From NCBI GenBank assembly GCA_023213195.1, contig CP096135.1, positions 946,616 to 1,010,615 on the forward strand: 64,000 bases of DNA, in the 5' to 3' direction. A program made the position numbers and the translations under genes. This DNA is from Sphingobacteriales bacterium JAD_PAG50586_3 (GTDB lineage: Bacteria; Bacteroidota; Bacteroidia; CAMBQF01). Each line of letters begins with the position of its first letter. The first letter of the stretch is position 1. Under the pieces are notes generated by a model, which saw nothing but the letters and a program-made list of their open reading frames with translations, was not told the DNA's origin and did no database searches. Shown here piece after piece: positions 15,640 to 49,076 of the stretch.

Positions 15640-16032
15640 GATAAATTGGGATTTAATGGTTTGTAATTCTTTTTGTTTTAGAACTAAGCTATAGTCGTAG
15701 GGCATTGTTCAATCCTTACAGATAATACCTCAATTCAGAAACATTCTATATTAAATTACAAACCGAACAAACCATTAAAATTTTGGGTTTACGCGCGTGC
15801 GGAAGCCTTGGATTGCTATTCAACCCTTGTCATTGTTGGACTTTAGCCCTTCTTATCCTGAATAAATTCTTGAAAAATTGTCCTTAAAAATCGATAATTT
15901 GATTCATTTGTAAATCAAAAAAGGATATGTGTTAACGCTGGGGCTTTTCTATCGCCGTATGCTTTGCTGATGCATTGGCATTTACTGCAATTGATAGCAA
16001 TAGGAATAAAAGGCCGATGTTTTTTTTCACTA

Positions 16033-17579
16033 TTAATCAAATTGAAATTTTACAATTTTAATCTTGGACGGTAATAAGATGTGCGAAGGGCGAAATATAT
16101 TTCCTTTTTCATCAACGCATGGGTAGTGACATTTTCTAAAAAGATTAATGACCCAATCATCCTTAGCAGGAACTATAGTTCTGGTATAATTGCCATTTTC
16201 TGCAAATGAATAAAAATAATACACGGGCTCAGACTTCTTTTTACGCGCATCTATCGGCTCAAATCCATCAAATATTAGGTTATACCCTTTGGGGCTTTTA
16301 GTAAAATATGCTCCACTTAATGAATTATCATTTGTACCAAACTCCTTACTGCTGGTAATTGATTTATCCCACCTTATGCCTTTTTCATCAACATTAATAA
16401 CAGCTATGCCACATTCTACACTTCTGTTTATAATAAATTGGTCGGGAGCATAATTATATTTAATAACACGCATATTTCCAACATTATATCGATCAGGGGT
16501 GGGCCGGGGATATTAAGATTTAGCCACGTTTTTTTAAAGAATATAGTATAGGAACTGTCTTTGTTTTCAAATATATTCTTGATTACTATATCATCTACCG
16601 TTTTAAATTTTACAGCTTTGGCTGCAAAGCTATCGTTAAAAGCATATTGTGTATTTGGGGTTATGCTTGTTGCAGTGCTAATTATATTTGTAACAAAAAA
16701 GCCATGAAATAGGGCGGGGTCTTTACTGTCTTTATAAACCCCCGCAATAACGGGCTCTCCTTTTCTATTTACGTGTAACTTTGCATTACTTAGTATTTTA
16801 TTGCCTCCCGGCTCCGTTTTAATCTCTGTAAAAACACCTTTGCTATCTATTTTATATAATAAATATTTATTGGTAATGTCGCCTGTTGTGTATGAAGCAT
16901 ATGCGTGTACTAACAAGTAGCTATTTTCTTCCTTATCAGACACAAAATCAAATATTCGTAACCCATCATAAGGTGTGGGAATTGTTATTGAAAGTGTTTT
17001 AACTACATTTAATTCCTTATCTAAATAGATAAGTTTTTCTTTTGCATTTTTATCATCCTTCTCGCCATATAAATAAACGTACGGCATATCAGGTAAACCG
17101 GTAGGCCTTATTTCGTTGCTCTCACCAAATGTATACGCCCCATATAAGTCTGTATTATCTTCTTCTATGCCTGAATTTATCAATTCTGTTTTATACGTTA
17201 GTTCCCCATTGGCTCCAATACTGAATAACCTGCTTGCACAACCTGCCGGTGCCTCTTGATAGAGCAATAAATAGGGTTGTCCGCTTAAAAGAAAAAGCCC
17301 AACAGGTACTTTCTTTATGTCCTTTCCTTTAAAGTCCTCTTGCCCATACATCTTATAAAAATCAAGTGCAAGTGTTTCAGAGTTGTACTTTTCTATACTA
17401 AACTTAATATCATACTTAGGGTGAATACGCAAAACATATACACTGCCGTTATTGTCGTATAACATGGTTTTAACTTCCCAACCTACAATATTGGGCTCGG
17501 TAGTTATACTTTCTTTAATTGTTTGGGCTTGTATAACTCCTATAAATAAACAGAATAAAAGGCTGATGTATTTTTTCAT
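16033..17579 (-). CDS. secreted protein of unknown family, paralog C (two ORF fragments, frameshift near 16430-16470)
   Basis: Signal peptide MKKYISLLFCLFIGVIQAQT. Shared motifs VYVLR, IEKYN and C-terminal …KIVKFQFD with the two upstream paralogs. Confidence 0.5.
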
Positions 17580-17587
17580 TCTCTGTT

Positions 17588-19075
17588 TTATGGTACAAAT
17601 TTAAGCAGCCTTATTTCTTTTTTGCCTCCATCGTCGCCTGCAATTCCTAGCTGCCATGGAATATAACAATTGCCTGCGCTATCGTAACAGGCACTATTAT
17701 ATCCATTTAGTAAACTATAATTATTTGCCAAATCAGGCGTGCTATCAGCAACTTTTTGACCTGTTACTTTATTGCCATTAATATTAAATAAATAATATGC
17801 GCCATAGCTTTTGTCCGATTTCTGCGACCTTGTAACAAGGTTGTATCCGCCTTTATATGGGTAAAAAATAAAGGTGTTAATGTCCATAGCAGGGTTGTTT
17901 TCGGCCGGGAGTTGATCTGTATAGGTTGATGATTCAATAGCCTCATCATTAAAAACCGTTAGGTTACTAGAGGTTGTTTGTCTCTCATAGTGCGTAGAGC
18001 TATAACTATAACTACCGGCACCGGCTATGGTGCCTTGTCGCGAATAGGTAGTTTGGTAACTATCCCTATAATAGGTTTTAAAAACAGCCGCGTATTTTCC
18101 GTTTTGTACTAATACATTTTCAACATCGCAATATCCTTTACCACCAGGGCTTTGTGCCATCGTGCCCTTAAATTCAAATATATCAGGCTCAATAATTTCA
18201 CTAACATTATCTAGTTTTTCAACAAAAAATCCCTTTACAATAAGAACACCAATAACGCGGGGCGTTTTATTTTCATCATAGAAAAAATTAATATCAGAAA
18301 CTCTATTATGATCCTCAAATTTTATTTTTACTTCTTTTAACTGTCCATCTTTAGTTATTTTGTTGAAGTAATATTCAGTGTAGTTAAAATCACCCTTTCT
18401 TGAATCCATTTTTACAACTACATAGCTTTCGCCGGTTGTATTATTTATTACACATCGCACATCTCTTACAATGTGTTGTGGCTCAGGAATATCAATTTCT
18501 TTGCTGCTTACTGTAGCAAAATCAGGACTTAAAAAGTTTACAAAAACCTTTGACTCTTTATTATTACCAAATATTTGCGCCAATACATAGGGCTGTTCTT
18601 TATTCTCTGTAAATATTAATTTATCGTGCGGAAAATCCGGCTCTTTAGCCGACTGGTTCAAATCAAAAGCCTTGTTCCAATCTCTCGATACTATTTCTTT
18701 CCGGCTTTCTTCTCCGCCTTTATCATTTAATGTAACCAGATAAAAAGTAAACGTTTTATCATCGTACTTTTTTGATAAAAGAGTAGGCCTACCATTAAGC
18801 ATATACATATCCAAATACCAATATTTAGGCTCTTTGGTTATTACAGTATATATAGGCTTAAGTGTTTCCATATTGTATTTTTCTATGGAATAGTTTAAGG
18901 CTTTACCAACCATTAAACCCCTCAATACATATACCGCCTTTTCACTTTCGTCACAAAGTACCCTTAGCACCTTGTTTTTCTTGTTACTTACTTCGCTTTC
19001 GGGGCTGGTTTCTAATGTTTGTGCTTTTAGGTTTAAAGCCAGCAAGATTAATAGCAGCAGGGTTATTCTTTTCAT
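17588..19075 (-). CDS. secreted protein of unknown family, paralog B
   Basis: Signal peptide MKRITLLLLILLALNLKAQT. VYVLRG, IEKYN and C-terminal …IRLLKFVP. Confidence 0.55.
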   Translation of the reverse strand: MKRITLLLLILLALNLKAQTLETSPESEVSNKKNKVLRVLCDESEKAVYVLRGLMVGKALNYSIEKYNMETLKPIYTVITKEPKYWYLDMYMLNGRPTLLSKKYDDKTFTFYLVTLNDKGGEESRKEIVSRDWNKAFDLNQSAKEPDFPHDKLIFTENKEQPYVLAQIFGNNKESKVFVNFLSPDFATVSSKEIDIPEPQHIVRDVRCVINNTTGESYVVVKMDSRKGDFNYTEYYFNKITKDGQLKEVKIKFEDHNRVSDINFFYDENKTPRVIGVLIVKGFFVEKLDNVSEIIEPDIFEFKGTMAQSPGGKGYCDVENVLVQNGKYAAVFKTYYRDSYQTTYSRQGTIAGAGSYSYSSTHYERQTTSSNLTVFNDEAIESSTYTDQLPAENNPAMDINTFIFYPYKGGYNLVTRSQKSDKSYGAYYLFNINGNKVTGQKVADSTPDLANNYSLLNGYNSACYDSAGNCYIPWQLGIAGDDGGKKEIRLLKFVP

Positions 19076-22139: not shown

Positions 22140-22945
22140 CTTTTAAAATGCGCGCAAATATAGCGGTTTATTGTTTACTACAGTATTTAGTTTCCTTTTT
22201 AAGTCCCCCTCACTCCTTTAGGAGAGGGGGATTTAGGGGTGAGGGAAAGCCACTAAACCCCGCATCGCTGTAAATAAAAGAGCATGTTTTGGACCCTCGT
22301 TTTTAAACTCCCCTACTTTTTAAGCCTGCCCAGACACGAATGTCGTCAGGGGAGGGGTGGCCTTTAGGCCGGGGTGGTTACATCCCTAAAACCCGCATCG
22401 CTGCAAGATAAAGCGCACGTTTTGAACCCTCGTTTACCTCACCCAGCCGCACCCAATTTCCATTGGCTGCGACACCCTCTCCCGGCGGGCGAGGGTAAAA
22501 ACCGATAAGCCCCTCAAAATATCACCTATCTTAAAGCCACAGGGCTGTAAAATTTTTTTCAAAATGAACTTGACATTTTATATTTCTACAGTTTAAAACG
22601 TCCGATAAATCCTCCATCCCGTTTCTTTCAATTTTTGTCAAGTAGTTTACCCCAATTAAAGCCAAGGGGCTGTAAGAAAAAATTGCAAAATGAACCCGTC
22701 ATCCCGAACTTGTTTCGGGATCTATAAATTCACAGAAGCAACATCGAAAATGTAAAGTATCAGGCATAGTTTAGTTGTGCTTGCTAATGTCGACAATTCA
22801 TCTTCGGGACAATAGATTTTTCGTTTTTCATTGTTAGTTTTTAGTTTCCTACAAAGATACAACCCCAGGTACCCGTTTGTCAAGATTAACTTTTAAGTCC
22901 CCTGCTTTTTAAGGGGTAGCCTTTAGGCGTGGTGGTTACATCATT
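22140..22945. repeat. non-coding repeat island 1: mosaic of short dispersed repeat modules (R1, R2, R3) with GC-rich hairpins
   Basis: No ORF over 60 aa. Modules are shared with island 2 (47170-47975) and with 26690-26732. See findings. Confidence 0.6.
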
Positions 22946-22948
22946 TTT

Positions 22949-23575
22949 TTAGCTATTTGATTTGTAGGTAAATTTCAAATTTGCCCAATCTGTCTCAGCC
23001 TCAACTGAATAACAAATTCCATTAAGATATGCATAAGTAGTTTTATTTCCATTTGGTAAATACATTACATACCTATTGTTGCCAGCGTTTTTTATAGGTA
23101 TCATTCGTTGAAATTTTTCAGAAAAGATAGAGTTCACATTTACAGGTTCATAAAAATAAAGGCATGCAGTTGTTAAGAGTATGGGATTATTGATAAAACC
23201 GTTATGGCCATTTTTATCAAAGCAACTATAAAATCTTCCATTCCAGGTTATGAGATTATTTACTTCTACTTTATTATTTGTTGTTCGATATAATTTTGCC
23301 TCTTGCAAAATATTCTTATTAAATTTCACGCTCATCTTATCATAAAATTTTATATTAAATAACAAGAGGTTCACTCTTGCATTCGATTCAAAAAAATACT
23401 CTGTAACATCATTATTTGTACTTTTTATAATGTGTATTTCACCAATTGCTTCATTACCTTTTGTAATTGTGTAGGTTAGGTTCTTTCTGTTATTTATATA
23501 GCTTGAAGCTTCTGCGAATTGAAAATTCATAATGCAGATTAAAAGCAGGATTATAATGTTTTTTAATTGTCTCAT
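22949..23575 (-). CDS. hypothetical secreted protein (AT-rich)
   Basis: 208 aa with signal peptide. No recognisable motif. Confidence 0.4.
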   Translation of the reverse strand: MRQLKNIIILLLICIMNFQFAEASSYINNRKNLTYTITKGNEAIGEIHIIKSTNNDVTEYFFESNARVNLLLFNIKFYDKMSVKFNKNILQEAKLYRTTNNKVEVNNLITWNGRFYSCFDKNGHNGFINNPILLTTACLYFYEPVNVNSIFSEKFQRMIPIKNAGNNRYVMYLPNGNKTTYAYLNGICYSVEAETDWANLKFTYKSNS

Positions 23576-23618
23576 GATTTCATTGTTTTTATTGGTTTAT
23601 AATGATTTATTTGTGTGT

Positions 23619-24598
23619 TTAAATGTTTTTTACTGTATATTTATCTGTGAAGTATATAATTGCGTCTTTAATTGCATCCTCAACCGGAGTATATTCTAAT
23701 TCCAATTCTGAAATAGATTTTTTGTTTGTATAGAAATTGTCAATACAAAGTATTTTCATATTTGTACTGCTTATGCTTGTTTTAATTTTACAAAACCTTA
23801 AAACGTCGCCTAAATACCCAATTCCTATTAATATTTTTTTTGGGATTTTTAACATTAAAGGGCGTTGATTAGTGATGTTATTTAGTTTTCTAAAAAAATC
23901 AACATAACTAAGATTTTCATTTACAATAAGATAGTTTGCTCCATATTTCTCTTTGGATAAGCTCAAAATGATGCCCTTAGCCACATCTTTAACATGAACA
24001 AAATTTTTCCCGCCTGACGGATAAAATATTATTTTCTTTTTCCAACCCATTAAAATTATTTTACCAGAACTTGGCTTTGTATCAAATGCTCCAAGCATAA
24101 AACCCGGATTTATAATTATTACATTTATCTTGTCTTGGTGCTGTAACAGATTTTTTCAGCTTCCAATTTACTTTGAGCATAAAAGGAAGATTGGAATGGC
24201 GATTTTATTTTACTTTTTTCTGTTCCTAAATCATTTAATGAGCCAAATCCCAATGTGTTTGCTGTGCTTACAAAAACAAATGTTTTTACTTTACAAAGAA
24301 TGGCGGTATTTTGGAATTGTGAGGTAGCATTACAATTGATTTTCCAATAATCCTTATAGTTGATTATGTTCTGACTTGTTTCTGCGGCAATATGAATAAC
24401 AGTATCTACATCTTTTAGAATCAGTGTAAAATCATCAAACAAATCCCCTTCAATTAGTTCTAAATTGGGATGTAATGGCCCTTCAAATTTTGATTTGTTA
24501 CGTATTAATCCTTTTACATAATATCCTTTTTCTAACAAATCAAATGCAAGGTTCGTACCTAGTAGTCCATTAATGCCTGTTACAAATACTTTTTCCAT
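23619..24598 (-). CDS. NAD-dependent epimerase/dehydratase-family protein (extended SDR), two fragments with a frameshift near 24100-24125
   Basis: N-terminal Rossmann VFVTGINGLLGTNLAFDLLEKGYYV. The C-terminal half is in another frame. Confidence 0.55.
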
Positions 24599-24599
24599 A

Positions 24600-25391
24600 T
24601 TAAATTTCTCTTTTGATTGCATTTGTCATTAAAGGCAATCTTATCCAGATGGGTAAAAGTTTTAAAAGTGCATAGCTGAAAGGGTTCACCATAATTACAG
24701 TGTCTTTTCTAAATAGTTGTTGAATACAATATTTAGCCACTTTTGCAGGATCTAGCAATGTTAATTTCCCCAGTAACCCTTGTTTTTCTATCCTAGCTTT
24801 TACCTCATTATTTGTTTTCATTGCTCCCGGGTTTACAACACTTACAGATACAATGGAGTCTTTAAGTTCTTCAGATAACCCTCTGGTAAAGGAATGAATG
24901 AAACTTTTTGAGGCGGGATATACAGTCTTGTAACCAATGGGCGAAAAAGCTGCCATACTTGATACATTCAGAATATATGATTCTGTTTGTTTCATTAGAT
25001 TGGGCAGTAACTTATGGGTAATTATGGAGGTTGCCACCACGTTTACCTGCATAATCGTATTGATATAATTTACATCGGCATCTATAAATTTTTTAGTGCC
25101 ACCTACTCCAGCATTATTGATTAGAATATTAATGTTAAAGTGCTTATTTAGCCAGTCGGTGAGGGCTATTACATTTTGGGTTTGAGCCAAATCCGTTTCG
25201 TAATAATAGGTTTTCACACCATATCTGGTAGCTGTTTCGGCAGCTAAAATGGAAATGCTTTCATTTGGCAGACTTACCAGAATGACATTTATTTTTCTGG
25301 TAGCCAACTCTGTTACAAAAGCCTTACCCAATCCTTGGCTGGCTCCGGTTACTATCGCAAATGTTTCTTTTGTTTGAACTTCTGCTTGCAT
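24600..25391 (-). CDS. SDR-family short-chain dehydrogenase/reductase
   Basis: FAIVTGASQGLGKAF… NAG…, YPASK catalytic motif. Confidence 0.8.
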   Translation of the reverse strand: MQAEVQTKETFAIVTGASQGLGKAFVTELATRKINVILVSLPNESISILAAETATRYGVKTYYYETDLAQTQNVIALTDWLNKHFNINILINNAGVGGTKKFIDADVNYINTIMQVNVVATSIITHKLLPNLMKQTESYILNVSSMAAFSPIGYKTVYPASKSFIHSFTRGLSEELKDSIVSVSVVNPGAMKTNNEVKARIEKQGLLGKLTLLDPAKVAKYCIQQLFRKDTVIMVNPFSYALLKLLPIWIRLPLMTNAIKREI

Positions 25392-25523
25392 AAACTTAAA
25401 TTTTATGAAGCAAAAGTATAATGAGCATAGAGCCTGAATGCTCTGGTTTATAACAGTGAACGCATTGAATTAAGTTTGTAACCTAATGGTAATAAATACT
25501 TTACATAAACCCTATGGGTGAGT

Positions 25524-26630
25524 TTATAAGGTTGAACTGCTTTTCTTGAATTCTGATGGAGTTTGATTGGTCAACTTCTTAAACGTAGTATTAAAAGCTG
25601 TTTTGGAATTAAAGCCCACCTCAAAGGCTATACCCAGTATTGAATATTGATCCATTTTTGAACTAAGCAGCAGTAATTTGGCTTCCTCAATTCTGTACTT
25701 ATTAATAAAATTGAAAAAATTTAAATTGAAGCCGGAGTTAATGATGTAGGATAATTTGTGAGTAGTTGTGCCAAATAATTCCGCAAGTTTTACTAAAGTA
25801 AGCTCAGAATCAAGATAGGGCTTTTGGCTGAGCATAAATTGAGTTAATTGTGCTTTTAGGTTAACTAATTCTTCATCCGATATAATCTTCTTTTTAGCAT
25901 CACTAACTTCAATTTCATCGCTCAAGGATATAATTTCTTCAATGGCTTTTTCTTTAAAAGGGTAGATTTCCTTTTGCCTCAATGAATGAAAAGCAGTATA
26001 ATAAATTATCAGGAGGCTTAAAATATTCATAATCAGGTCTAATCGCTCCAAACTAAAAAGAATATTGTAAAAGATAACTGTTATGACTATCAAAAGAATC
26101 GCAATAATGATCCTTTTAAGCTAGGAGAGATCAATTTCCATTTTTTGAGAAGAATACATCATAACAACCTTTTGGTGCTTTCTTACTTTGTAATAAGAAG
26201 CCAGAGTATAGAAGAGTGTCTGGCTAAGCATCAAAAAAATAAGTATATAGTTAATAGTCAGGGAATTTGACTTGGCAAAGAAATAAAGTAAAATAATGTA
26301 ACCAATGGGGAGAATGAGATGTTGCGGGATTGCCTTTTTAAATTTGAAGCTTGGATTAGAATAAAATACAACGGTAAAATAAAACAGAATTGGTGTAAAG
26401 TATTGCACGCCCCTTAATAACAGTTGCCAATTTTGGTTTAGCTCTACACCGTAAACAAGAAATACTATTTCATCTACCCAGAAAAATGCCCACAGAAGAA
26501 AATATACTCCAAGCAATCGGTTAGCAATTTTGTTTACCTTAAATATATTAACCTGATTCAAAAATGAAAGCAGCATTAGTGAACCAAAGTTTAAAATCAC
26601 AAACAAAGAAGCTAATTTGTCAAATATCAT
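25524..26630 (-). CDS. AraC-family HTH transcriptional regulator with an N-terminal multi-TM sensor domain, interrupted by an in-frame TAG (26121-26123)
   Basis: C-terminal AraC HTH (…LAELFGTTTHKLSYIINSGFNLNFFNFINKYRIEEAKLLL…GFNSKTAFNTTFKKLTNQTPSEF). The upstream 169-aa TM ORF is in the same frame through the TAG. Confidence 0.5.
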
Positions 26631-26832
26631 ATTTTATTACTTTGTGTTGCCGAACTTAATTTTTTCATTACGTATCATCGGGGTGAGGCCCTACAAAGAT
26701 ATAACCCACTACCCCTTTGTCAAGAATAAGTTCCGCTCTTTATTTAAATTAAACCCTTTACCCCCTTATCTGTTTGTGGTATTGCGCTCTGGCAATTGCA
26801 CGTTGCAAATGCCTACCTTTGCACCCTATATA

Positions 26833-27563
26833 TGGCAAATAACCCACCTGTAAAACCGTACGATAACCCCAACCTTACTAAGAAAGAAGAGGTTGCCCTT
26901 ATGTTTGATACCATATCGGGCCGGTACGATTTTATGAACCGATTTTTATCCCTAGGCATTGATAAGCTGTGGCGCCTTAGGCTTCTTAAAAAACTACGCA
27001 AGCAAAATCCTGAAAATGTGTTAGATATAGCCACCGGCACTGCCGATTTGGCCATACTGGTATCTAAACACGCTAAAAACGTTATTGGGGCAGATATATC
27101 GGAAGGTATGCTGGCCGTAGGGCGAGAAAAGGTTGCCAAGCGCAAAATTACCAATGTTACCCTGCAATATGGCGATAGCGAAAACCTACCCTTTGCCGAT
27201 AATACCTTTGATGCCATTACCGTAGCCTTTGGGGTGCGTAACTACGAGAACCTTGAAAAAGGCCTTGCTGATATGCTACGTGTATTAAAGCCCGGCGGCA
27301 TGGTTTATGTATTAGAATTTTCGCGCCCGCGCAAGTTTCCTGTAAAGCAGGCATACTTTTTTACTTTAACAACGTTTTACCCCGATGGGGCAAAGTTTTG
27401 TCAAAAGACACATCGGCATACACGTATTTACCCCAATCGGTAAAAGCCTTTCCTGATGGCGAAGACTTTACGGCTATATTAGAAAAATGTGGCTTTACCG
27501 AAACTAAATTTGATTTTTTGAGTAATGGCATTGCCGCCTTGTATACGGCAGTAAAGAAATAAA
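26833..27563 (+). CDS. ubiE: demethylmenaquinone / ubiquinone C-methyltransferase UbiE/MenG, with a frameshift near 27350-27440
   Basis: SAM-MTase motif VLDIATGTADLA plus UbiE signatures. The true C-terminus (…FPDGEDFTAILEKCGFTETKFDFLSNGIAALYTAVKK*) is in another frame, ending at 27563. Confidence 0.75.
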
Positions 27564-42013: not shown

Positions 42014-43300
42014 TTATTTGCTAACGTTTTCGCAAAGAATTTCTTTCTCGCGGGCGTCTAAAGAATATTTGTAGCCACTGTTCCAGGTGCCGCCACCGGC
42101 ATAATCCTGCTGAACAAATACATCAACCATATAGCATTTACCATCGCTCTTTTTAAATGCAACAGTCATCCACTGGTAGCGGTATACAGGCAGGTCATAA
42201 TCGTTCTTTTTAATTTGCCATGCGCTGGTCATAACCCCTACACGTTGAATGGTAACGCCCGAAGTATAATAGCCTGTAACCTCGCGTTTAGCAGCTGCTT
42301 CCCATGTTGGGTTTGATGATGCCACTTTAGGGAAACGCACTTTGGCTAGTTGCTCAGCATCCCACTTGGCTTTAAACTTAACAAACTCACCGCTGCTTTT
42401 AAAGTCTTCGTATTGCTTTTGTATGCCTTCAAACGTGGTTCTAAGTGTTTTAAGTTGCGCTTCGGCAGGCACACCCGGTTTTAATGGGATAAGGGCTTTG
42501 TCTATTTTAGCAATATTTTCTTTCATACCGCGAATAGCAGCATCCGGGTCAAGTTTGTTACGCTCCTCATTAAAATCGTACATGTAGGTTTTCTTCATCT
42601 CGGGGATAAAGTTCTCGTCCATGTATTTAGGGTACATCTCGTTATAGTACCTGTCAGCATCCGGAATCATTTTAGGGTAGTCTGCCGTTGGCGATGCTGC
42701 GTATGCATCGCGGCCCGCTATATAATCGGCATAGCTGTATTTGCTGTAAGCCCCATCGCGGAAGTTGCTGGTAGCGCGGCCTGCGGCATCCATAACAATC
42801 CAGTTCATTTGGTTTTCTTTGTCAAGCATGGCGCTGTTGCCATCGTATTGCGCTTTCAGGTCGTTCAGCTCTTTTTGGTAGTCGTCAACCTTCCAGTTAG
42901 GGTCTTTGGTTTTTATTTTGTCAATATACCCTTGTGCTTTATCAAAATCGCCATCCAGATAGCCTTTGTAGCGTTTTTCAGTAGACTTAGGTTTTAACTC
43001 TTTTAACAGGGATTCTACGTTTCCTATTTCGTAGCTGGCCGGGCTGGCTTGTATTTGCTGGTAACGGCTGTTGCCACCGGTTGTGGTAGACCCCGAACCT
43101 GACGATGAGCCGGAAGTTGAAGAGCCTGAAGAAGAGCCGCTGCCCGATGATGAACCACCCGATGAAGGTGTGGTAGAGGTTGCTTTATCTACAGTTTTGT
43201 TGGCCTTGTCTTTGGCTTTGTTTAGCAAGCCGCCACCAATTTGGCCATAGCTTGTAGTAAGTGCAAGTGCGGCAATAGTAGTAATGGTAAGGTTTTTCAT
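42014..43300 (-). CDS. hypothetical secreted protein with a Ser/Gly-rich linker
   Basis: 428 aa. Signal peptide, (SSGSG)n low-complexity linker, then a ~330-aa domain with no recognised motifs. Confidence 0.45.
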   Translation of the reverse strand: MKNLTITTIAALALTTSYGQIGGGLLNKAKDKANKTVDKATSTTPSSGGSSSGSGSSSGSSTSGSSSGSGSTTTGGNSRYQQIQASPASYEIGNVESLLKELKPKSTEKRYKGYLDGDFDKAQGYIDKIKTKDPNWKVDDYQKELNDLKAQYDGNSAMLDKENQMNWIVMDAAGRATSNFRDGAYSKYSYADYIAGRDAYAASPTADYPKMIPDADRYYNEMYPKYMDENFIPEMKKTYMYDFNEERNKLDPDAAIRGMKENIAKIDKALIPLKPGVPAEAQLKTLRTTFEGIQKQYEDFKSSGEFVKFKAKWDAEQLAKVRFPKVASSNPTWEAAAKREVTGYYTSGVTIQRVGVMTSAWQIKKNDYDLPVYRYQWMTVAFKKSDGKCYMVDVFVQQDYAGGGTWNSGYKYSLDAREKEILCENVSK

Positions 43301-44558: not shown

Positions 44559-45131
44559 ATGAAAACACTTATTACAGCCCTTTTTGGCATTGCGTTACTA
44601 TCGTTTACAACGGGTATTGATAAGCCTATGCTTGATAAAGAAGAAGCCAAAAAAGCCTATTTCTTTTTGAATACTGTACGTGCTAATGTTACCGCCTATG
44701 CCAAAGAACTGCAACTGCCTAATGATATTAAAATTACCACCAGAGCGTTAATGTGGAACGACACCCTTGCCAAAGTGGCGGAGGCCAAGGCGCTGGACAT
44801 GGCTACCCGCAACTACTTTGCCCATGTAGACCCCGATGGTGTGGGCATGAACTACTACATTGACAAGGCCGGTTACAAGCTTGATAAGTACCAGGTAAAA
44901 ACCAAAAGGCAAAACTCTTTTGAGTCTATCTCGGCCGGCTATAACACCGGCGAAGAGGTTATCAAAAGCCTTATTATTGATACCTGGGACCCTGTAAACC
45001 TGGGCCACCGCAAACACCTGCTGGGTATGGAGGGCTGGGCCGGCACAACCGATATTGGTATTGGCTTTGCCCGTGGCACGGTAAACAACAAGTTTACTAC
45101 CTACGTAAGTATATTAATAGCGAAGCATTAA
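44559..45131 (+). CDS. CAP/SCP (YkwD-like) domain secreted protein
   Basis: …NYFAHVDPDG… and …GHRKHLLGMEGWAGTTDIGIGFA… resemble the bacterial CAP/YkwD signatures. Confidence 0.5.
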   Translation: MKTLITALFGIALLSFTTGIDKPMLDKEEAKKAYFFLNTVRANVTAYAKELQLPNDIKITTRALMWNDTLAKVAEAKALDMATRNYFAHVDPDGVGMNYYIDKAGYKLDKYQVKTKRQNSFESISAGYNTGEEVIKSLIIDTWDPVNLGHRKHLLGMEGWAGTTDIGIGFARGTVNNKFTTYVSILIAKH

Positions 45132-45143
45132 AGTACAACAGCT

Positions 45144-45938
45144 TTATTTTGTAATGTCTATACCTTTTGACAAACAAAAGCGGCTAATATCATCGTATAT
45201 TTTCTTTGTAATTATAGTAGCTTTACTACAGTCCTTTTTATTAGGATCTCCGTTGGTGTGTATAGCAAAAGCATAGTTTACGGCACTATCAGTATACCAA
45301 ACAGGGGCACCACTAACGCCGTGTTCAGTATAAAATTCATAACGCATATAGTTTTCGGTGTCGTTTTTAATATAATTAGTAGTATTATCTTCCCAAAGTG
45401 TACAATACAATTTATTATCTTCACTAGGGTATCCGGCTAAAAATACCGGAGGCTTTCCGGTCAAATTATTTGCATCATAAGGAGTAAGTGTAAAACGTGT
45501 ATTTACTTTCTTATAGGCCTCTTCATCCGGTAATATTATAACACCATAATCCTCTTCAATACTGTAGTGTTTGTTGAATGATTGTAATGTGTAAATATTG
45601 TCGTTTTGCGTGGTTGCAAATGTTGTTTGGTATAGGTTGGTATTGCGGTCGGTAGCGCCAAAACGTAAAGTCAGTTGTTTAACCCGAGTGTAAATAAATT
45701 GCGGCCTTTTTCTCACATTATGCCCGGCTGTAATTAAAACCCTGGGGTGTATAAAAAATGCAGTGCCGATGTATGATTTGCCTCTCTTCATAGTTACATG
45801 TACTATACCGCTATTGGGGGCAGAAATTGCAGTTACTTGTTTTCTGCGTTTTTTAGCAGCTGGAATATCACAATTTTGTGCTTGCGAAATGGTAAATAAA
45901 AGCACAGAAAAAAACAGGAATAAAGATTTAATATTCAT
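45144..45938 (-). CDS. trypsin-like (S1-fold) serine peptidase, secreted
   Basis: Signal peptide. LITAGHNV (His), GVSGAPVW (Ser), analogous to TAAHC/GDSGGP. Confidence 0.5.
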   Translation of the reverse strand: MNIKSLFLFFSVLLFTISQAQNCDIPAAKKRRKQVTAISAPNSGIVHVTMKRGKSYIGTAFFIHPRVLITAGHNVRKRPQFIYTRVKQLTLRFGATDRNTNLYQTTFATTQNDNIYTLQSFNKHYSIEEDYGVIILPDEEAYKKVNTRFTLTPYDANNLTGKPPVFLAGYPSEDNKLYCTLWEDNTTNYIKNDTENYMRYEFYTEHGVSGAPVWYTDSAVNYAFAIHTNGDPNKKDCSKATIITKKIYDDISRFCLSKGIDITK

Positions 45939-46012
45939 AGCAGTTAGGTTTTTATTTAAGTAAAATTAGCTATTTTATTTTTAAAAAAATAGTGGGTTGA
46001 AAAAATTAAGCA

Positions 46013-46396
46013 CTAAAGCACCAACTCGGTAAACAGGCGCTCTGCCGTTTGGTTTAAGTTGTGGGTAATGCCCGGGTGTGGGCGCGATGTTTGTATGGCC
46101 GAACTGCGCACTGCTGTTAGCCACCTAAACCGCGATGGTACATCTAGTTCAGCAATAGGGCCGCAGTTGGCAGCACCCATGGCTATCTTCTCAAACGATT
46201 CTAAATTCAGCTTTACCTGGTGTATATCCAGCTCATCGCTAAACGATGCCAAGCGGGCTTCATTTAACTGGTATTTTACCGATATATATTTGGCGTTTTT
46301 GCAAAACAGCACTATGCCTACGTTTATAAACTCTTCCCTTTCTACCACGGGCAAAACGCGTATTACGGCATACTCATATAAGTATCTTTCTTGCAT
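46013..46396 (-). CDS. DUF3037 domain protein
   Basis: YLYEYAVIRVLPVVEREEFINVGIVLFCK matches the DUF3037 N-terminal core. Confidence 0.65.
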   Translation of the reverse strand: MQERYLYEYAVIRVLPVVEREEFINVGIVLFCKNAKYISVKYQLNEARLASFSDELDIHQVKLNLESFEKIAMGAANCGPIAELDVPSRFRWLTAVRSSAIQTSRPHPGITHNLNQTAERLFTELVL

Positions 46397-47168
46397 TTTG
46401 GGCTTCGTTAGTAAAAATTTCAGAGTTATTTATGCGGGTAATTAAAAATTGGTAATATACCTCCCTTGCTTGTTCGGCAGTTTCGTCAATGTCTTCGCGT
46501 TCCAACCATTCAGCGGGAATAAGATTAACCAACGCACGTATTTTATCTGCTGTTAATACCTGTTTAAATTCGGCATTTATTTCATCAAGCATACTGGCCT
46601 GTGGCAATAGTACGTGGTCTTTAATTAAGGCAAAAGGGCTTTTAGCATGCGTTTCCCAGGTTGTCCAGCTGTGGTGAAAGTATAGTGATGCGCCTTGGTC
46701 TATAAGCCACAGCTCCTTATGCCACATAAGCATATTGGTGTTTTTAAAAGTGCGGTCTATATTGGTAATAAAGGCATCTAACCATACAATAGCCGATGCT
46801 GTTTTAGCATCAACCGTAGTAACTACAGGGTCAAACGTTATAGCGCCCGATAGAAAGTGCATGGCGATATTAAGCCCCTGACTGCTTTTCAGCAGGTCTT
46901 GTATCTCCTCGTCGCCTTCGGTTTGGCCAAACGCTTCGTCCAGGTTAGCAAATACCAGTTCGGGTACTTTTAACCCCAGCAGGCGGGCAATTTCGCCACC
47001 CAGTAGTTCCGATATAAGCGCCTTTGGGCCATGGCCATTCCCTTTGAATTTAAGCACATACTTAAACCCATCGTCAGCCTCGGCCAGGGCCGGCAACGAA
47101 CCACCCTCGCGCAACGGCTGAATATAGCGCGTAACGTTAACAGTACGTAAATCAGAAACTGTAGTCAT
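46374..47168 (-). CDS. HipA-like kinase-domain protein (Ser/Thr kinase fold), overlapping its DUF3037 partner
   Basis: …ALISELLGGEIARLLGLKVPE…AIVWLDAFITNIDRTFKNTNMLMW… resembles the HipA_C catalytic region (DxHxKN-like). Confidence 0.5.
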   Translation of the reverse strand: MTTVSDLRTVNVTRYIQPLREGGSLPALAEADDGFKYVLKFKGNGHGPKALISELLGGEIARLLGLKVPELVFANLDEAFGQTEGDEEIQDLLKSSQGLNIAMHFLSGAITFDPVVTTVDAKTASAIVWLDAFITNIDRTFKNTNMLMWHKELWLIDQGASLYFHHSWTTWETHAKSPFALIKDHVLLPQASMLDEINAEFKQVLTADKIRALVNLIPAEWLEREDIDETAEQAREVYYQFLITRINNSEIFTNEAQNARKILI

Positions 47169-47169
47169 A

Positions 47170-47975
47170 ATCTGTTGCCAAATGTAGTTATTTTAACTTT
47201 TAAAGGTCTCCCTTTCCAAAGGGAGTGGCTGGCGCCTTGGCGCCAGACGAGGGATTTAATGTCGTTGTCAAAATCCCCGGCTCTTCGAGCCACCCCTTTA
47301 AAAGGGCGACCTAAACCCTTGCGGCTGTAAGATAAAGCACACGTTTTGAGCTCTCCTTCCGTACCCCCTCCTAACCTCGCGTTGCTCGGTTTCTCCTCCC
47401 CCTACTAATAGGGGAGGTGTCCGCCAGGACTGTGGGGGTAAGAAAACCCGCATGGCTGTCCCAAAGGGATGCCTTCGGCACAAGATAAAGCGTACGTTTT
47501 GAGCCCCAACTATATACCCTCTTGAGAGGGGTGGCAAAGCAACGCTTTGACGGGGTGTGTATTGTAACGTTCCAATCCCTACAGGCGGTAGTAAAATATA
47601 TCATTTCTGCTCATCGTTTTTTTTAACTCCCCTACTTTTTAAGGAGGGGTAATTCTGACTGGTAAGTCAGAATGGGGTGGTTACCTTAAACCCCTACAGG
47701 CGGTAGTAGAAAAATGTGTTTCTGCGCACCATTTATAGGTGCAAATACATGGGTTGACTTAAAGTAAAACTTTAACTCAAAAAATTTTAAAGATCTCCCT
47801 TTCAAAAGGGAGTGGATTCCGATGATAATCGGAAGACGAGGGATTTCGGCAGGCATTAGTTATAGTTTTTACAAAGATACAACCCCGAATACCCCTTTGT
47901 CAAATTAAAATATACACACTACATTAGAACACAGAAACACCTGCCTTTTATAGTATGTAACATGATACTGCAAAC
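47170..47975. repeat. non-coding repeat island 2: mosaic of modules R1 to R6
   Basis: No ORF over 80 aa. Shares R1, R2 and R3 with island 1 and R5 with 35326-35395. Internal duplicated R4 and R6 modules. Confidence 0.6.
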
Positions 47976-49076
47976 ATGAACAGAAAGACAATAATGATTA
48001 AAGTACTATTCTTTTTAAGCGTACTGGCTATTTTAACATCGTGTAACGGGCAAAATAAAAATATATCATCTAATACAGAAACCTTAAATGATTCAATTGC
48101 TGTAGGAAATACTGTAAATAAACTCGGTAACCATTTGTGGTATGTTTTTCAAGACAAAAAGAATAACTATTGGTTTGGAAGTAATGGTGAAGGTGTGTAT
48201 CGTTATGACGGAAAAACGATAGTCAATTTTACGACAAAAGATGGACTTGCAAACGACACTATAAGACAAATTCAAGAGGACAAATTTGGGAATATATTTG
48301 TTTCAACTTTCGGCGGTATCAGCAAGTTTGACGGAAAGACATTTGCTACTCTGCAACCAATCAAAAGCAAAGAATGGAAATTAGAACCTAATGATTTGTG
48401 GTTTTATATATTGGGTAAAAAGAATGAGGGTGCTTATCGCTACGATGGCGAAAACCTATACAATTTAGAATTTCCTCAACACTATCTTCACGATGAAATT
48501 TATCCACGAGTTGTCAATTCGTTTTTTAGTCCTTACGAAGTGTATTCTATTTATAAAGACAGAAAAGGGGCAATGTGGTTTGGCACTTCAGTTTTTGGAG
48601 CTTGCCGTTTTGACGGAGAAACAGTAAAATGGATGTACGAAGACGATTTGACCTATGTACCTAATGGGGGCACTTTTGGCATTCGTTCCATTTTTGAAGA
48701 TAAAGAAGGCAGCTATTGGTTTTGCAATACGCGGCACCGGTTTGTTTTTGACTTTGACAAAACAACAAAAAGCGACAGGCTTCAATATCAAAAAATTGAT
48801 GGAATTGGAAACGCAAAAATCTTTGGTGGAGATGAATACATTTACTATTCATACATTTTAGAAGATAATAAAGGGAATATTTGGTTAACCACCTGGGACA
48901 AAGGAGTGTATAAATATGATGGATCTGCTATTACAAATTATTCAGTTAAAGATGGTTTAAAAGACGTTAATTTAGTTTCAATGTACAAAGATAACCAAGG
49001 CAACCTATGGCTTGGAACACCAGAAAACGGAGCATTTAAGCTTAATGGTAATACATTTGAAAGATTTAAACCATAA
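47976..49076 (+). CDS. lipoprotein composed of two-component-regulator propeller (Reg_prop-type) repeats
   Basis: Lipobox LTSC. Repeated units of the form GNIWLTTWDKGVYKYDG, YWFGSNGEGVYRYDG, MWFGTSVFGACRFDG, LWLGTPENGAFKLNG. Confidence 0.55.
   Translation: MNRKTIMIKVLFFLSVLAILTSCNGQNKNISSNTETLNDSIAVGNTVNKLGNHLWYVFQDKKNNYWFGSNGEGVYRYDGKTIVNFTTKDGLANDTIRQIQEDKFGNIFVSTFGGISKFDGKTFATLQPIKSKEWKLEPNDLWFYILGKKNEGAYRYDGENLYNLEFPQHYLHDEIYPRVVNSFFSPYEVYSIYKDRKGAMWFGTSVFGACRFDGETVKWMYEDDLTYVPNGGTFGIRSIFEDKEGSYWFCNTRHRFVFDFDKTTKSDRLQYQKIDGIGNAKIFGGDEYIYYSYILEDNKGNIWLTTWDKGVYKYDGSAITNYSVKDGLKDVNLVSMYKDNQGNLWLGTPENGAFKLNGNTFERFKP

Follow-up and report, generated by a model that had tools for sequence, protein, structure and literature searches.

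What role does a small HipA-like kinase play when the gene that accompanies it encodes not a HipB-type helix-turn-helix (HTH) protein but a DUF3037 protein? This question is raised by a two-gene locus at positions 46,013 to 47,168 of a 64,000-nucleotide (nt) stretch of contig CP096135.1 from Sphingobacteriales bacterium JAD_PAG50586_3 (assembly GCA_023213195.1), the whole of which is called the window hereafter. The locus had been put forward, from the letters of the DNA, as a non-canonical kinase-based conflict or regulatory pair with signs of mobility. Here we report that the kinase and DUF3037 genes are an obligate pair, that the pair is, by sequence comparison, a chromosomal short version of a published type of system, and that it probably works as a toxin and its neutraliser.

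The kinase and DUF3037 genes form an obligate, overlapping pair

Both open reading frames (ORFs) and their 23-nt overlap are present on the minus strand at exactly the coordinates given in the original prediction (Table 1). Within the overlap, the last seven codons and the stop of the kinase gene (N-A-R-K-I-L-I-stop) are read in a different frame as codons 1–7 and part of the eighth codon of the DUF3037 gene (M-Q-E-R-Y-L-Y). The DUF3037 start site lies inside the kinase gene, and the overlap is the presumptive site of termination–reinitiation coupling.

Relatives of the pair were collected by scanning one genome per GTDB species, which returned at least 519, and the best 80 loci were analysed. 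These loci belong to Flavobacteriales, Bacteroidales, Sphingobacteriales, Cytophagales, Chitinophagales and Saprospiraceae, and encode kinases 67–83% identical to that of the window. A DUF3037 gene lies directly downstream of the kinase gene in all 79 loci whose contig continues; the overlap measures 23 nt in 78 of the 79, and the partner is 127 amino acids (aa) long in 76 of 78. The consensus of the overlap, AATGCAAGAAAAACACTTATATGA, codes for the conserved ends N-A-R-K-x-L-I-stop and M-Q-x-K-H-L-Y-E. No conserved third gene (HTH, phosphatase or protease) was found, the next commonest gene cluster being present at 12 of 81 loci, and no upstream gene, a HipB-type HTH gene included, is conserved in the 80 loci. 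The claim that the partner is DUF3037 rather than a HipB-type HTH protein is supported, and the pair is co-conserved well outside the window. This co-conservation is far beyond chance, and the pair is obligate.

Pairs of this kind were also found at a greater distance, in Streptomyces (kinase 249 aa, partner 131 aa, overlap 4 nt), Chondrinema (259 aa by coordinates, 127 aa, 11 nt), Pantoea (244 aa, 276 aa, 4 nt by coordinates) and the E. coli phage PhiR5_1 (249 aa, 275 aa, 4 nt). A Sulfurimonas phage encodes a kinase (260 aa by coordinates) followed by a candidate partner ORF of 248 aa, with an overlap of 4 nt by coordinates.

A neighbour-joining tree of kinase and partner recovered clusters of Sphingobacteriales/Cytophagales/Chitinophagales, Flavobacterium, marine Flavobacteriaceae and Bacteroidales, within which the members of a genus mostly stay together. 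Median identity was 73.9% within genera (minimum 65.5%), 68.7% within orders and 63.7% between orders; 164 of 387 alignment columns (42%) are at least 90% conserved, and Bacteroides sub-clades have flanks in common. In Bacteroidota, then, the branch sits on the chromosome, seems to pass down mostly by vertical descent and is under unusual constraint; for that reason we see in it a fixed, resident module rather than defence cargo that moves between genomes.

Upstream of the kinase gene we read a putative −7 promoter box, TACATTTG; the Bacteroidota −7 promoter consensus is TAnnTTTG. A close relative, locus L001, has this box at the same position, and an exact TAnnTTTG occurs no more than 70 nt upstream of the kinase in 39 of the 80 loci, at variable distances. 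The position of the putative box would imply that the leader is very short and that the two genes are transcribed as a unit of their own. Scans for sigma-70 promoters and terminators are uninformative for Bacteroidota. No operator upstream of the kinase is conserved across the 80 loci, whose upstream sequences differ between clades, and the region appears to carry no sign of DNA binding by the partner.

The kinase retains the residues of an active atypical protein kinase

In a Pfam scan the kinase matched HipA_2 (PF20613; E 1.9e-18, 67.1 bits where the cutoff is 27, profile positions 3–219 of 240) and neither HipA_C (PF07804) nor Couple_hipA. PF20613 is a member of the protein-kinase clan and, in one kinase database, stands together with HipA_C. 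Of the 'HipA_C-like kinase core' that had been proposed, the kinase motifs are borne out and the family is not, Pfam giving HipA_2 instead. An NCBIfam scan of the kinase and the DUF3037 protein matched no family. At 264 aa the protein is a kinase core only, without the N-terminal subdomains of HipA.

The predicted catalytic residues (Table 1) were followed through a family alignment of 30 members, 35–100% identical. K40, N136, D138, R139, N145, D157, G159 and H185 are invariant in it, and R20, E21, G22, S24, E54, N143 and H158 nearly so. K40, E54, D138, N143, N145 and D157 do not vary in any of the 80 Bacteroidota orthologues, while residue 158 is Q in the window kinase, H in 69 of the 80 and Q in 8. 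Far from lacking catalytic residues on alignment, the kinase has them intact. The roles of the catalytic residues of HipA are well established, and its D309-x3-K-N314...D332 is laid out like D138-x3-K-N143...D157 of the window kinase.

Structure comparison gave values of 15.0 against Helicobacter pylori CtkA, 13.7 against PI4KIIalpha, 13.1 against CotH, 13.0 against Actin-fragmin kinase and 10.4–11.6 against HipA-family chains (7wcf_A, 4pu3_A, 5k98_A and HipT 7ab3_C). CtkA (PDB 3AKJ, a proinflammatory kinase by its entry title) is 17% identical to the window kinase and is not known to have a DUF3037 partner. PDB sequence and profile searches with both proteins and the family alignments returned nothing significant. 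Taken together, the alignment and the structure comparison show an intact atypical protein kinase with a HipA/CtkA/PI4K-like fold, which, to judge from its residues, looks active.

The partner is a single DUF3037 domain

The partner matched Pfam DUF3037 (PF11236) over the full profile, positions 1–118 of 118 (E 7.8e-44, 149 bits). Two conserved motifs stand out, P16-x-V-E-R-E-E-F-x-N-x-G27 and R89-F-R-W92-L-T94-A-x-R-S98...Q102. A model was built from an alignment of 44 Bacteroidota and Actinobacteria short forms (28–100% identity); the predicted structure is confident (predicted local distance difference test, pLDDT, 92.4) and begins at the N-terminus with three strands, which are followed by four helices, a pair of short strands and a last helix at the C-terminus. 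The window partner has no second C-terminal domain, either DUF1829 or DNA-binding-like.

The partner diverges faster than the kinase, with mean distances of 0.39 and 0.29, respectively. Antitoxins usually diverge faster than toxins, and the faster divergence of DUF3037 thus fits antitoxin behaviour and was counted in favour of a toxin/neutraliser arrangement. DUF3037 is presumed to be a stoichiometric partner or an inhibitor of the kinase.

In seven representatives of metagenome clusters at 50% (P0274, P0287, P0315, P0340, P0342, P0373 and P0375), HipA_2 and DUF3037 occur in one ORF of 346–429 aa, with truncated or broken profile coverage. Although a genuine kinase–DUF3037 fusion may be among them, we dropped these ORFs as Rosetta-stone evidence, because broken coverage marks them as probable frameshift or gene-call artefacts across the overlap.

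The pair resembles published defence systems but is shorter

The kinase matched the PADLOC profile PDC-M66A (E 1.8e-23, profile positions 10–247 of 270), and the partner matched PDC-M66B (E 2e-12) over positions 4–128 of 281 only. With the two profiles matching adjacent genes, the pair would probably be called PDC-M66 by the PADLOC definition, although the partner profile spans 281 positions against a DUF3037-only window partner, and no defence genes lie beside the window pair or its orthologues. PDC-M66 reportedly stems from the guilt-by-embedding set of Payne et al. 2024.

PDC-M66 is the PADLOC name for pairs of a HipA-like kinase and DUF3037, two strongly associated families (PMC12548924). 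Such a pair stands beside Retron-Sda1 in Sphingobacterium daejeonense, likewise a Bacteroidota host, and defends by itself against phage Bas51; deletion of the kinase in the Retron-Sda1 operon abolished this defence, and deletion of DUF3037 was toxic, independently of the retron (PMC12548924). Unlike the window pair, the Sda1 pair is preceded by an HTH gene and followed by the retron, its DUF3037 protein has a C-terminal extension resembling a retron DNA-binding protein, and the N-terminus of its kinase (S3 Table, PMC12548924) is strongly divergent from that of the window kinase.

A second tested system, DS-6 of DefensePredictor, since renamed HipAD, combines a HipA-related kinase with a DUF3037+DUF1829 protein; DS-6A with a catalytic mutation no longer defends, and the A and B proteins are predicted by AlphaFold3 to form a complex (PMC13092281). 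HipAD of E. coli prophages is attributed to Brenes & Laub 2025, as cited in PMC13092281. In the Escherichia phage PhiR5_1 (PV340545), a gene pair beside cI bears the annotations 'HipA toxin' and 'HipD antitoxin'; the window kinase is 27% identical to this HipA (E 9e-16) and the window partner 23% identical to HipD (E 3e-7). These pairs share with ours the Pfam families, a same-strand overlapping DUF3037 gene after the kinase, and the pattern D-x3-[KR]-N...D-H/Q. They differ in that HipD, at 275 aa, carries an additional C-terminal domain of ~150 aa (DUF1829 in DS-6B) that the window partner does not have, and in that the HipAD genes overlap by 4 nt and sit in a prophage beside cI, whereas the window pair overlaps by 23 nt in a chromosomal, syntenic housekeeping context. 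The Pantoea partner, like HipD, runs ~150 aa beyond the DUF3037 domain. The prophage or mobile-element carriage, or defence-gene setting, of HipAD-type systems was not seen for the window pair.

Canonical HipBA of E. coli K-12, a type II toxin–antitoxin (TA) system, has a kinase of 440 aa, as against 264 aa here, and its HipB HTH partner is encoded upstream, as against DUF3037 downstream; the window pair has neither HipA_C with Couple_hipA nor an upstream HipB, and hhalign of the window kinase with canonical HipA gave only a 24-column match at alphaC. HipBST is a tripartite TA system of the kinase HipT, the antitoxin HipS and the repressor HipB.

The pairing of a HipA-like kinase with DUF3037 is therefore already published (2024–2026) and in PADLOC, and our sequence comparisons place the window pair as a chromosomal short version of the HipAD / DS-6 / PDC-M66 type. 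The proposal of a non-canonical kinase-based conflict or regulatory pair agrees with homologous pairs that act as toxin and neutraliser against phage (PMC12548924, PMC13092281), but it is not a new idea. The unusual traits of the window pair are only two, its rigid conservation across Bacteroidota and the absence of any sign of mobility.

The chromosomal setting and the adjoining repeat island

On either side of the window pair the gene order matches that of L001, with neighbour proteins 51–93% identical, and the pair itself, 80% and 83% identical to that of L001, occupies the same syntenic slot. The neighbours in the window encode a GNAT acetyltransferase, a pentapeptide-repeat protein, a lipase sorted by the type IX secretion system, a radical S-adenosylmethionine enzyme, a DNA-alkylation repair protein and outer-membrane barrels. 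Among these neighbours we found neither integrase nor transposase genes, nor any gene for defence. At 25 other loci, no integrase or transposase family recurs among 147 neighbour genes. The GC content of the pair (0.44–0.45) equals that of its flanks.

An ~800-bp repeat-bearing stretch beside the pair, part of the original prediction, was confirmed and contains short direct and inverted repeats. The families D1–D5 and I1–I3 comprise repeats of 13–46 nt and are confined to one flank of the pair. Four segments of 22–34 nt recur at a second place in the window, and one of them also at a third (Table 1). The shared repeats are GC-rich and hairpin-forming or palindromic, e.g. CTCCCTTTC[C/A]AAAGGGAGTGG, AAGATAAAGCnnACGTTTTGAGC and CCCTACAGGCGGTAGTA. 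The predicted fold of the island is far more stable than that of shuffled sequence (minimum free energy z = -6.2). Its small ORFs had no Pfam match, and an Rfam scan of positions 45000–49000 gave only a sub-threshold chance match. In L001, two unrelated genes stand in place of the island. Because the repeats are short and recur elsewhere in the window, they look like dispersed intergenic elements of the repetitive extragenic palindromic (REP) kind that would belong to this genome, rather than the ends of an element or a part of the module.

A toxin/neutraliser module is the favoured explanation

We consider it probable that the module is a kinase effector restrained by a translationally coupled DUF3037 inhibitor, that is, a toxin/neutraliser mechanism. 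Ribosomes ending translation of the kinase would reinitiate on DUF3037, so that the partner would be made whenever the kinase is made; DUF3037 would then bind the kinase and hold it inactive. Phage infection, or stress that lowers the supply of the partner or displaces it, would disturb this complex and free the kinase. The free kinase would phosphorylate an essential cellular protein, probably a translation factor by analogy with HipA/GltX and HipT/TrpS, and the resulting growth stop would abort phage infection or induce dormancy. The occurrence of the pair in Streptomyces, Chondrinema, Pantoea and the Sulfurimonas phage was also counted as support. An anti-phage role of the short fixed form is less certain than the toxin/neutraliser mechanism itself.

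Several observations weigh against this mechanism, of which binding, inhibition, toxicity, trigger and target are all steps that we infer. The window partner has no DNA-binding domain for autoregulation. The tested systems, PhiR5_1 HipD, DS-6B and Retron-Sda1, are long-form partners, all with an extra C-terminal domain, and Pfam scores put the window pair (67 bits for HipA_2, 149 for DUF3037) in a subfamily separate from the phage and enterobacterial pairs (249–258, with 258 for PhiR5_1 HipA, and 84–85); the Streptomyces pair scores 55 and 142. PADLOC models were matched by only ~4–5 of the 147 neighbours (up to three positions away, 25 other loci), and two of these are generic DEAD-box helicases. 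Pattern scans with protein and family alignment found no relatives in 2.9 million IMG/VR viral contigs, and 3 of 50,697 phage records matched, all distantly, at less than 30% identity. Identity across orders of 57–73%, a tree that follows taxonomy and the syntenic context are likewise unlike typical TA or defence genes.

The main rival explanation is a domesticated housekeeping module: an ancient, vertically inherited regulatory kinase with DUF3037 as its obligate activator, adaptor or phospho-acceptor, which would control stress, growth-rate or envelope signalling and be neither an addictive TA system nor a phage defence. We regard this as possible, though not the probable outcome. It accords with the presence of the pair in at least six Bacteroidota orders at the kinase identities given above, with the proportion of conserved columns, with identities that drop with taxonomic rank and a tree that groups orders and genera, with the synteny to L001 and the common flanks of Bacteroides sub-clades, with the lack of association with mobile elements, defence genes or viruses, and with a partner devoid of any DNA-binding domain, in which T94, S98 and S104 are invariant or nearly so and could be phospho-acceptors. 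The homologues, however, act as toxin and neutraliser, and no conserved functional neighbour hints at a pathway. Moreover, conservation within genera is only about the genome average, the 'core' status of the pair across Bacteroidota is putative, and some chromosomal TA systems are also retained vertically over the long term; an example is HipBST of Legionella, which the abstract of PMC10653801 calls highly conserved throughout the genus. A kinase whose substrate is not protein but a small molecule (lipid, sugar, nucleotide or antibiotic-like), with DUF3037 as a substrate-presenting or regulatory subunit, seems quite improbable to us. Least probable is recently acquired mobile cargo, arriving with or bounded by the repeat island. 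The ~800-bp repeat-rich non-coding stretch does abut the kinase start, and the surroundings of the pair differ from L001 by insertions (a Reg_prop gene, the island and a trypsin-like gene). Against this, the repeats are short (17–34 nt), one-sided and dispersed, no integrase or transposase is near, the GC content is that of the flanks, the neighbours are of housekeeping type, the pair keeps its syntenic slot in L001, its tree tracks taxonomy and no viral relatives were found; plasmids matched in 9 of 72,556 cases, all of at least 131 kb and eight of them typed as non-mobilizable. The earlier reading of the island as 'consistent with mobility' is not supported, and mobile cargo is largely refuted.

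A further reading can be drawn, which we hold to be doubtful. The short pair might be no mobile defence or addiction module whatever, but an ancient, vertical 'split HipA' switch fixed across Bacteroidota, with a parallel Actinobacteria branch, in which DUF3037 would be a cryptic counterpart, unrecognisable in sequence, of HipS or of HipA N-subdomain 1, gating the kinase through the invariant RFRW(92)LT(94) helix; phage HipAD systems would be derivatives with an added DNA-binding domain. Couple_hipA was sought in the 44 DUF3037 members (Pfam, E up to 10) and was found in none, and hhalign of the DUF3037 profile with the N-terminal 133 aa of HipA gave no signal.

Significance of the short form

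The pairing has been described before, with experimental validation as an anti-phage system of toxin and neutraliser, so that the basic finding contributes little. The tested systems, with their long-form partners, are nevertheless the minority architecture; the best fit to the DUF3037 Pfam model by far is the single-domain partner of 127–131 aa, which is chromosomal, without a DNA-binding domain and joined to its kinase by a 23-nt overlap that is invariant across Bacteroidota. Should the fixed form still serve in defence, it would show that such systems can persist by vertical descent for very long times outside defence islands; should it not, a toxin-like kinase module has taken a conserved cellular role. 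Either way it offers a minimal system for how DUF3037, a fold without a solved relative, controls a HipA-like kinase. The points of note are how rigidly the pair is conserved throughout the phylum, the fold of DUF3037, which is unsolved, and a possible HipS-like role.

Features of the locus and additional observations

Table 1 Features of the window and of the kinase protein; positions are those of the window unless residues are named.
Feature	Position	Strand	Description
DUF3037 gene	46013–46396	minus	127 aa, ATG start; DUF3037 domain (PF11236) alone
Kinase gene	46374–47168	minus	264 aa, ATG start; HipA_2 (PF20613) atypical Ser/Thr protein-kinase-like protein
Dual-coding overlap	46374–46396	minus	23 nt, kinase and DUF3037 in different frames
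Putative −7 promoter box	47179–47186	minus	Read from sequence; starts 18 nt upstream of kinase ATG
Repeat island	47169–47975 (47187–47975 beyond the promoter box)		~800 bp, non-coding; short GC-rich hairpins and dispersed repeats; adjoins kinase start
Recurrence of four island segments	22300–22914
Further recurrence of one segment	26692–26723
Trypsin-like serine peptidase gene	45144–45938	minus	264 aa; between DUF3037 and CAP-domain genes
Reg_prop beta-propeller gene	47976–49076		Not in L001
Gene for 428-aa protein	42014–43300	minus	Signal-peptide-like N-terminus; long Ser/Gly/Thr low-complexity linker
Low-GC stretches	16000–19000, 23000–27000		GC 0.27–0.36, ~0.43 elsewhere
Gly-rich loop 'REGGSLP'	kinase residues 20–26
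Predicted catalytic set	kinase K40, E54, D157		ATP lysine, alphaC, metal-binding
Predicted catalytic loop	kinase D138-x3-K142-N143 and N145

The trypsin-like peptidase has a hydrophobic, signal-peptide-like N-terminus and weak Trypsin_2/Trypsin matches; its gene is a lineage-specific insertion, because the CAP gene directly abuts DUF3037 in L001. The 428-aa protein had no Pfam match and no counterpart in L001. The second of the low-GC stretches adjoins repeat island 1 of the window, and both stretches may be horizontally acquired or otherwise unusual.

On a plasmid of Streptomyces sp. 2P-4 (NZ_CP095012, 89186–95932), the short pair lies between genes for a polyketide synthase ketosynthase and a phosphopantetheinyl transferase on one side and, on the other, ccrA together with genes for a TetR regulator and for facT, a predicted elfamycin efflux pump. 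This context looks like a polyketide gene cluster, unlike the Bacteroidota chromosomes and the enterobacterial prophages. S. globosus has a near-identical kinase match.

Two database matters were also observed. Several records of the kinase family, including the Sulfurimonas phage SNW-1 gene, carry the legacy label 'aminotransferase class I and II', an apparent misannotation; newer records read 'HipA family kinase'. The record of L001 is titled 'Chitinophaga pinensis' and that of a further locus, L011, 'Hydrocarboniphaga daqingensis', Hydrocarboniphaga being a gammaproteobacterial genus. The pairs of both cluster with those of uncultured Bacteroidota metagenome-assembled genomes, and the species labels of these two assemblies look unreliable.

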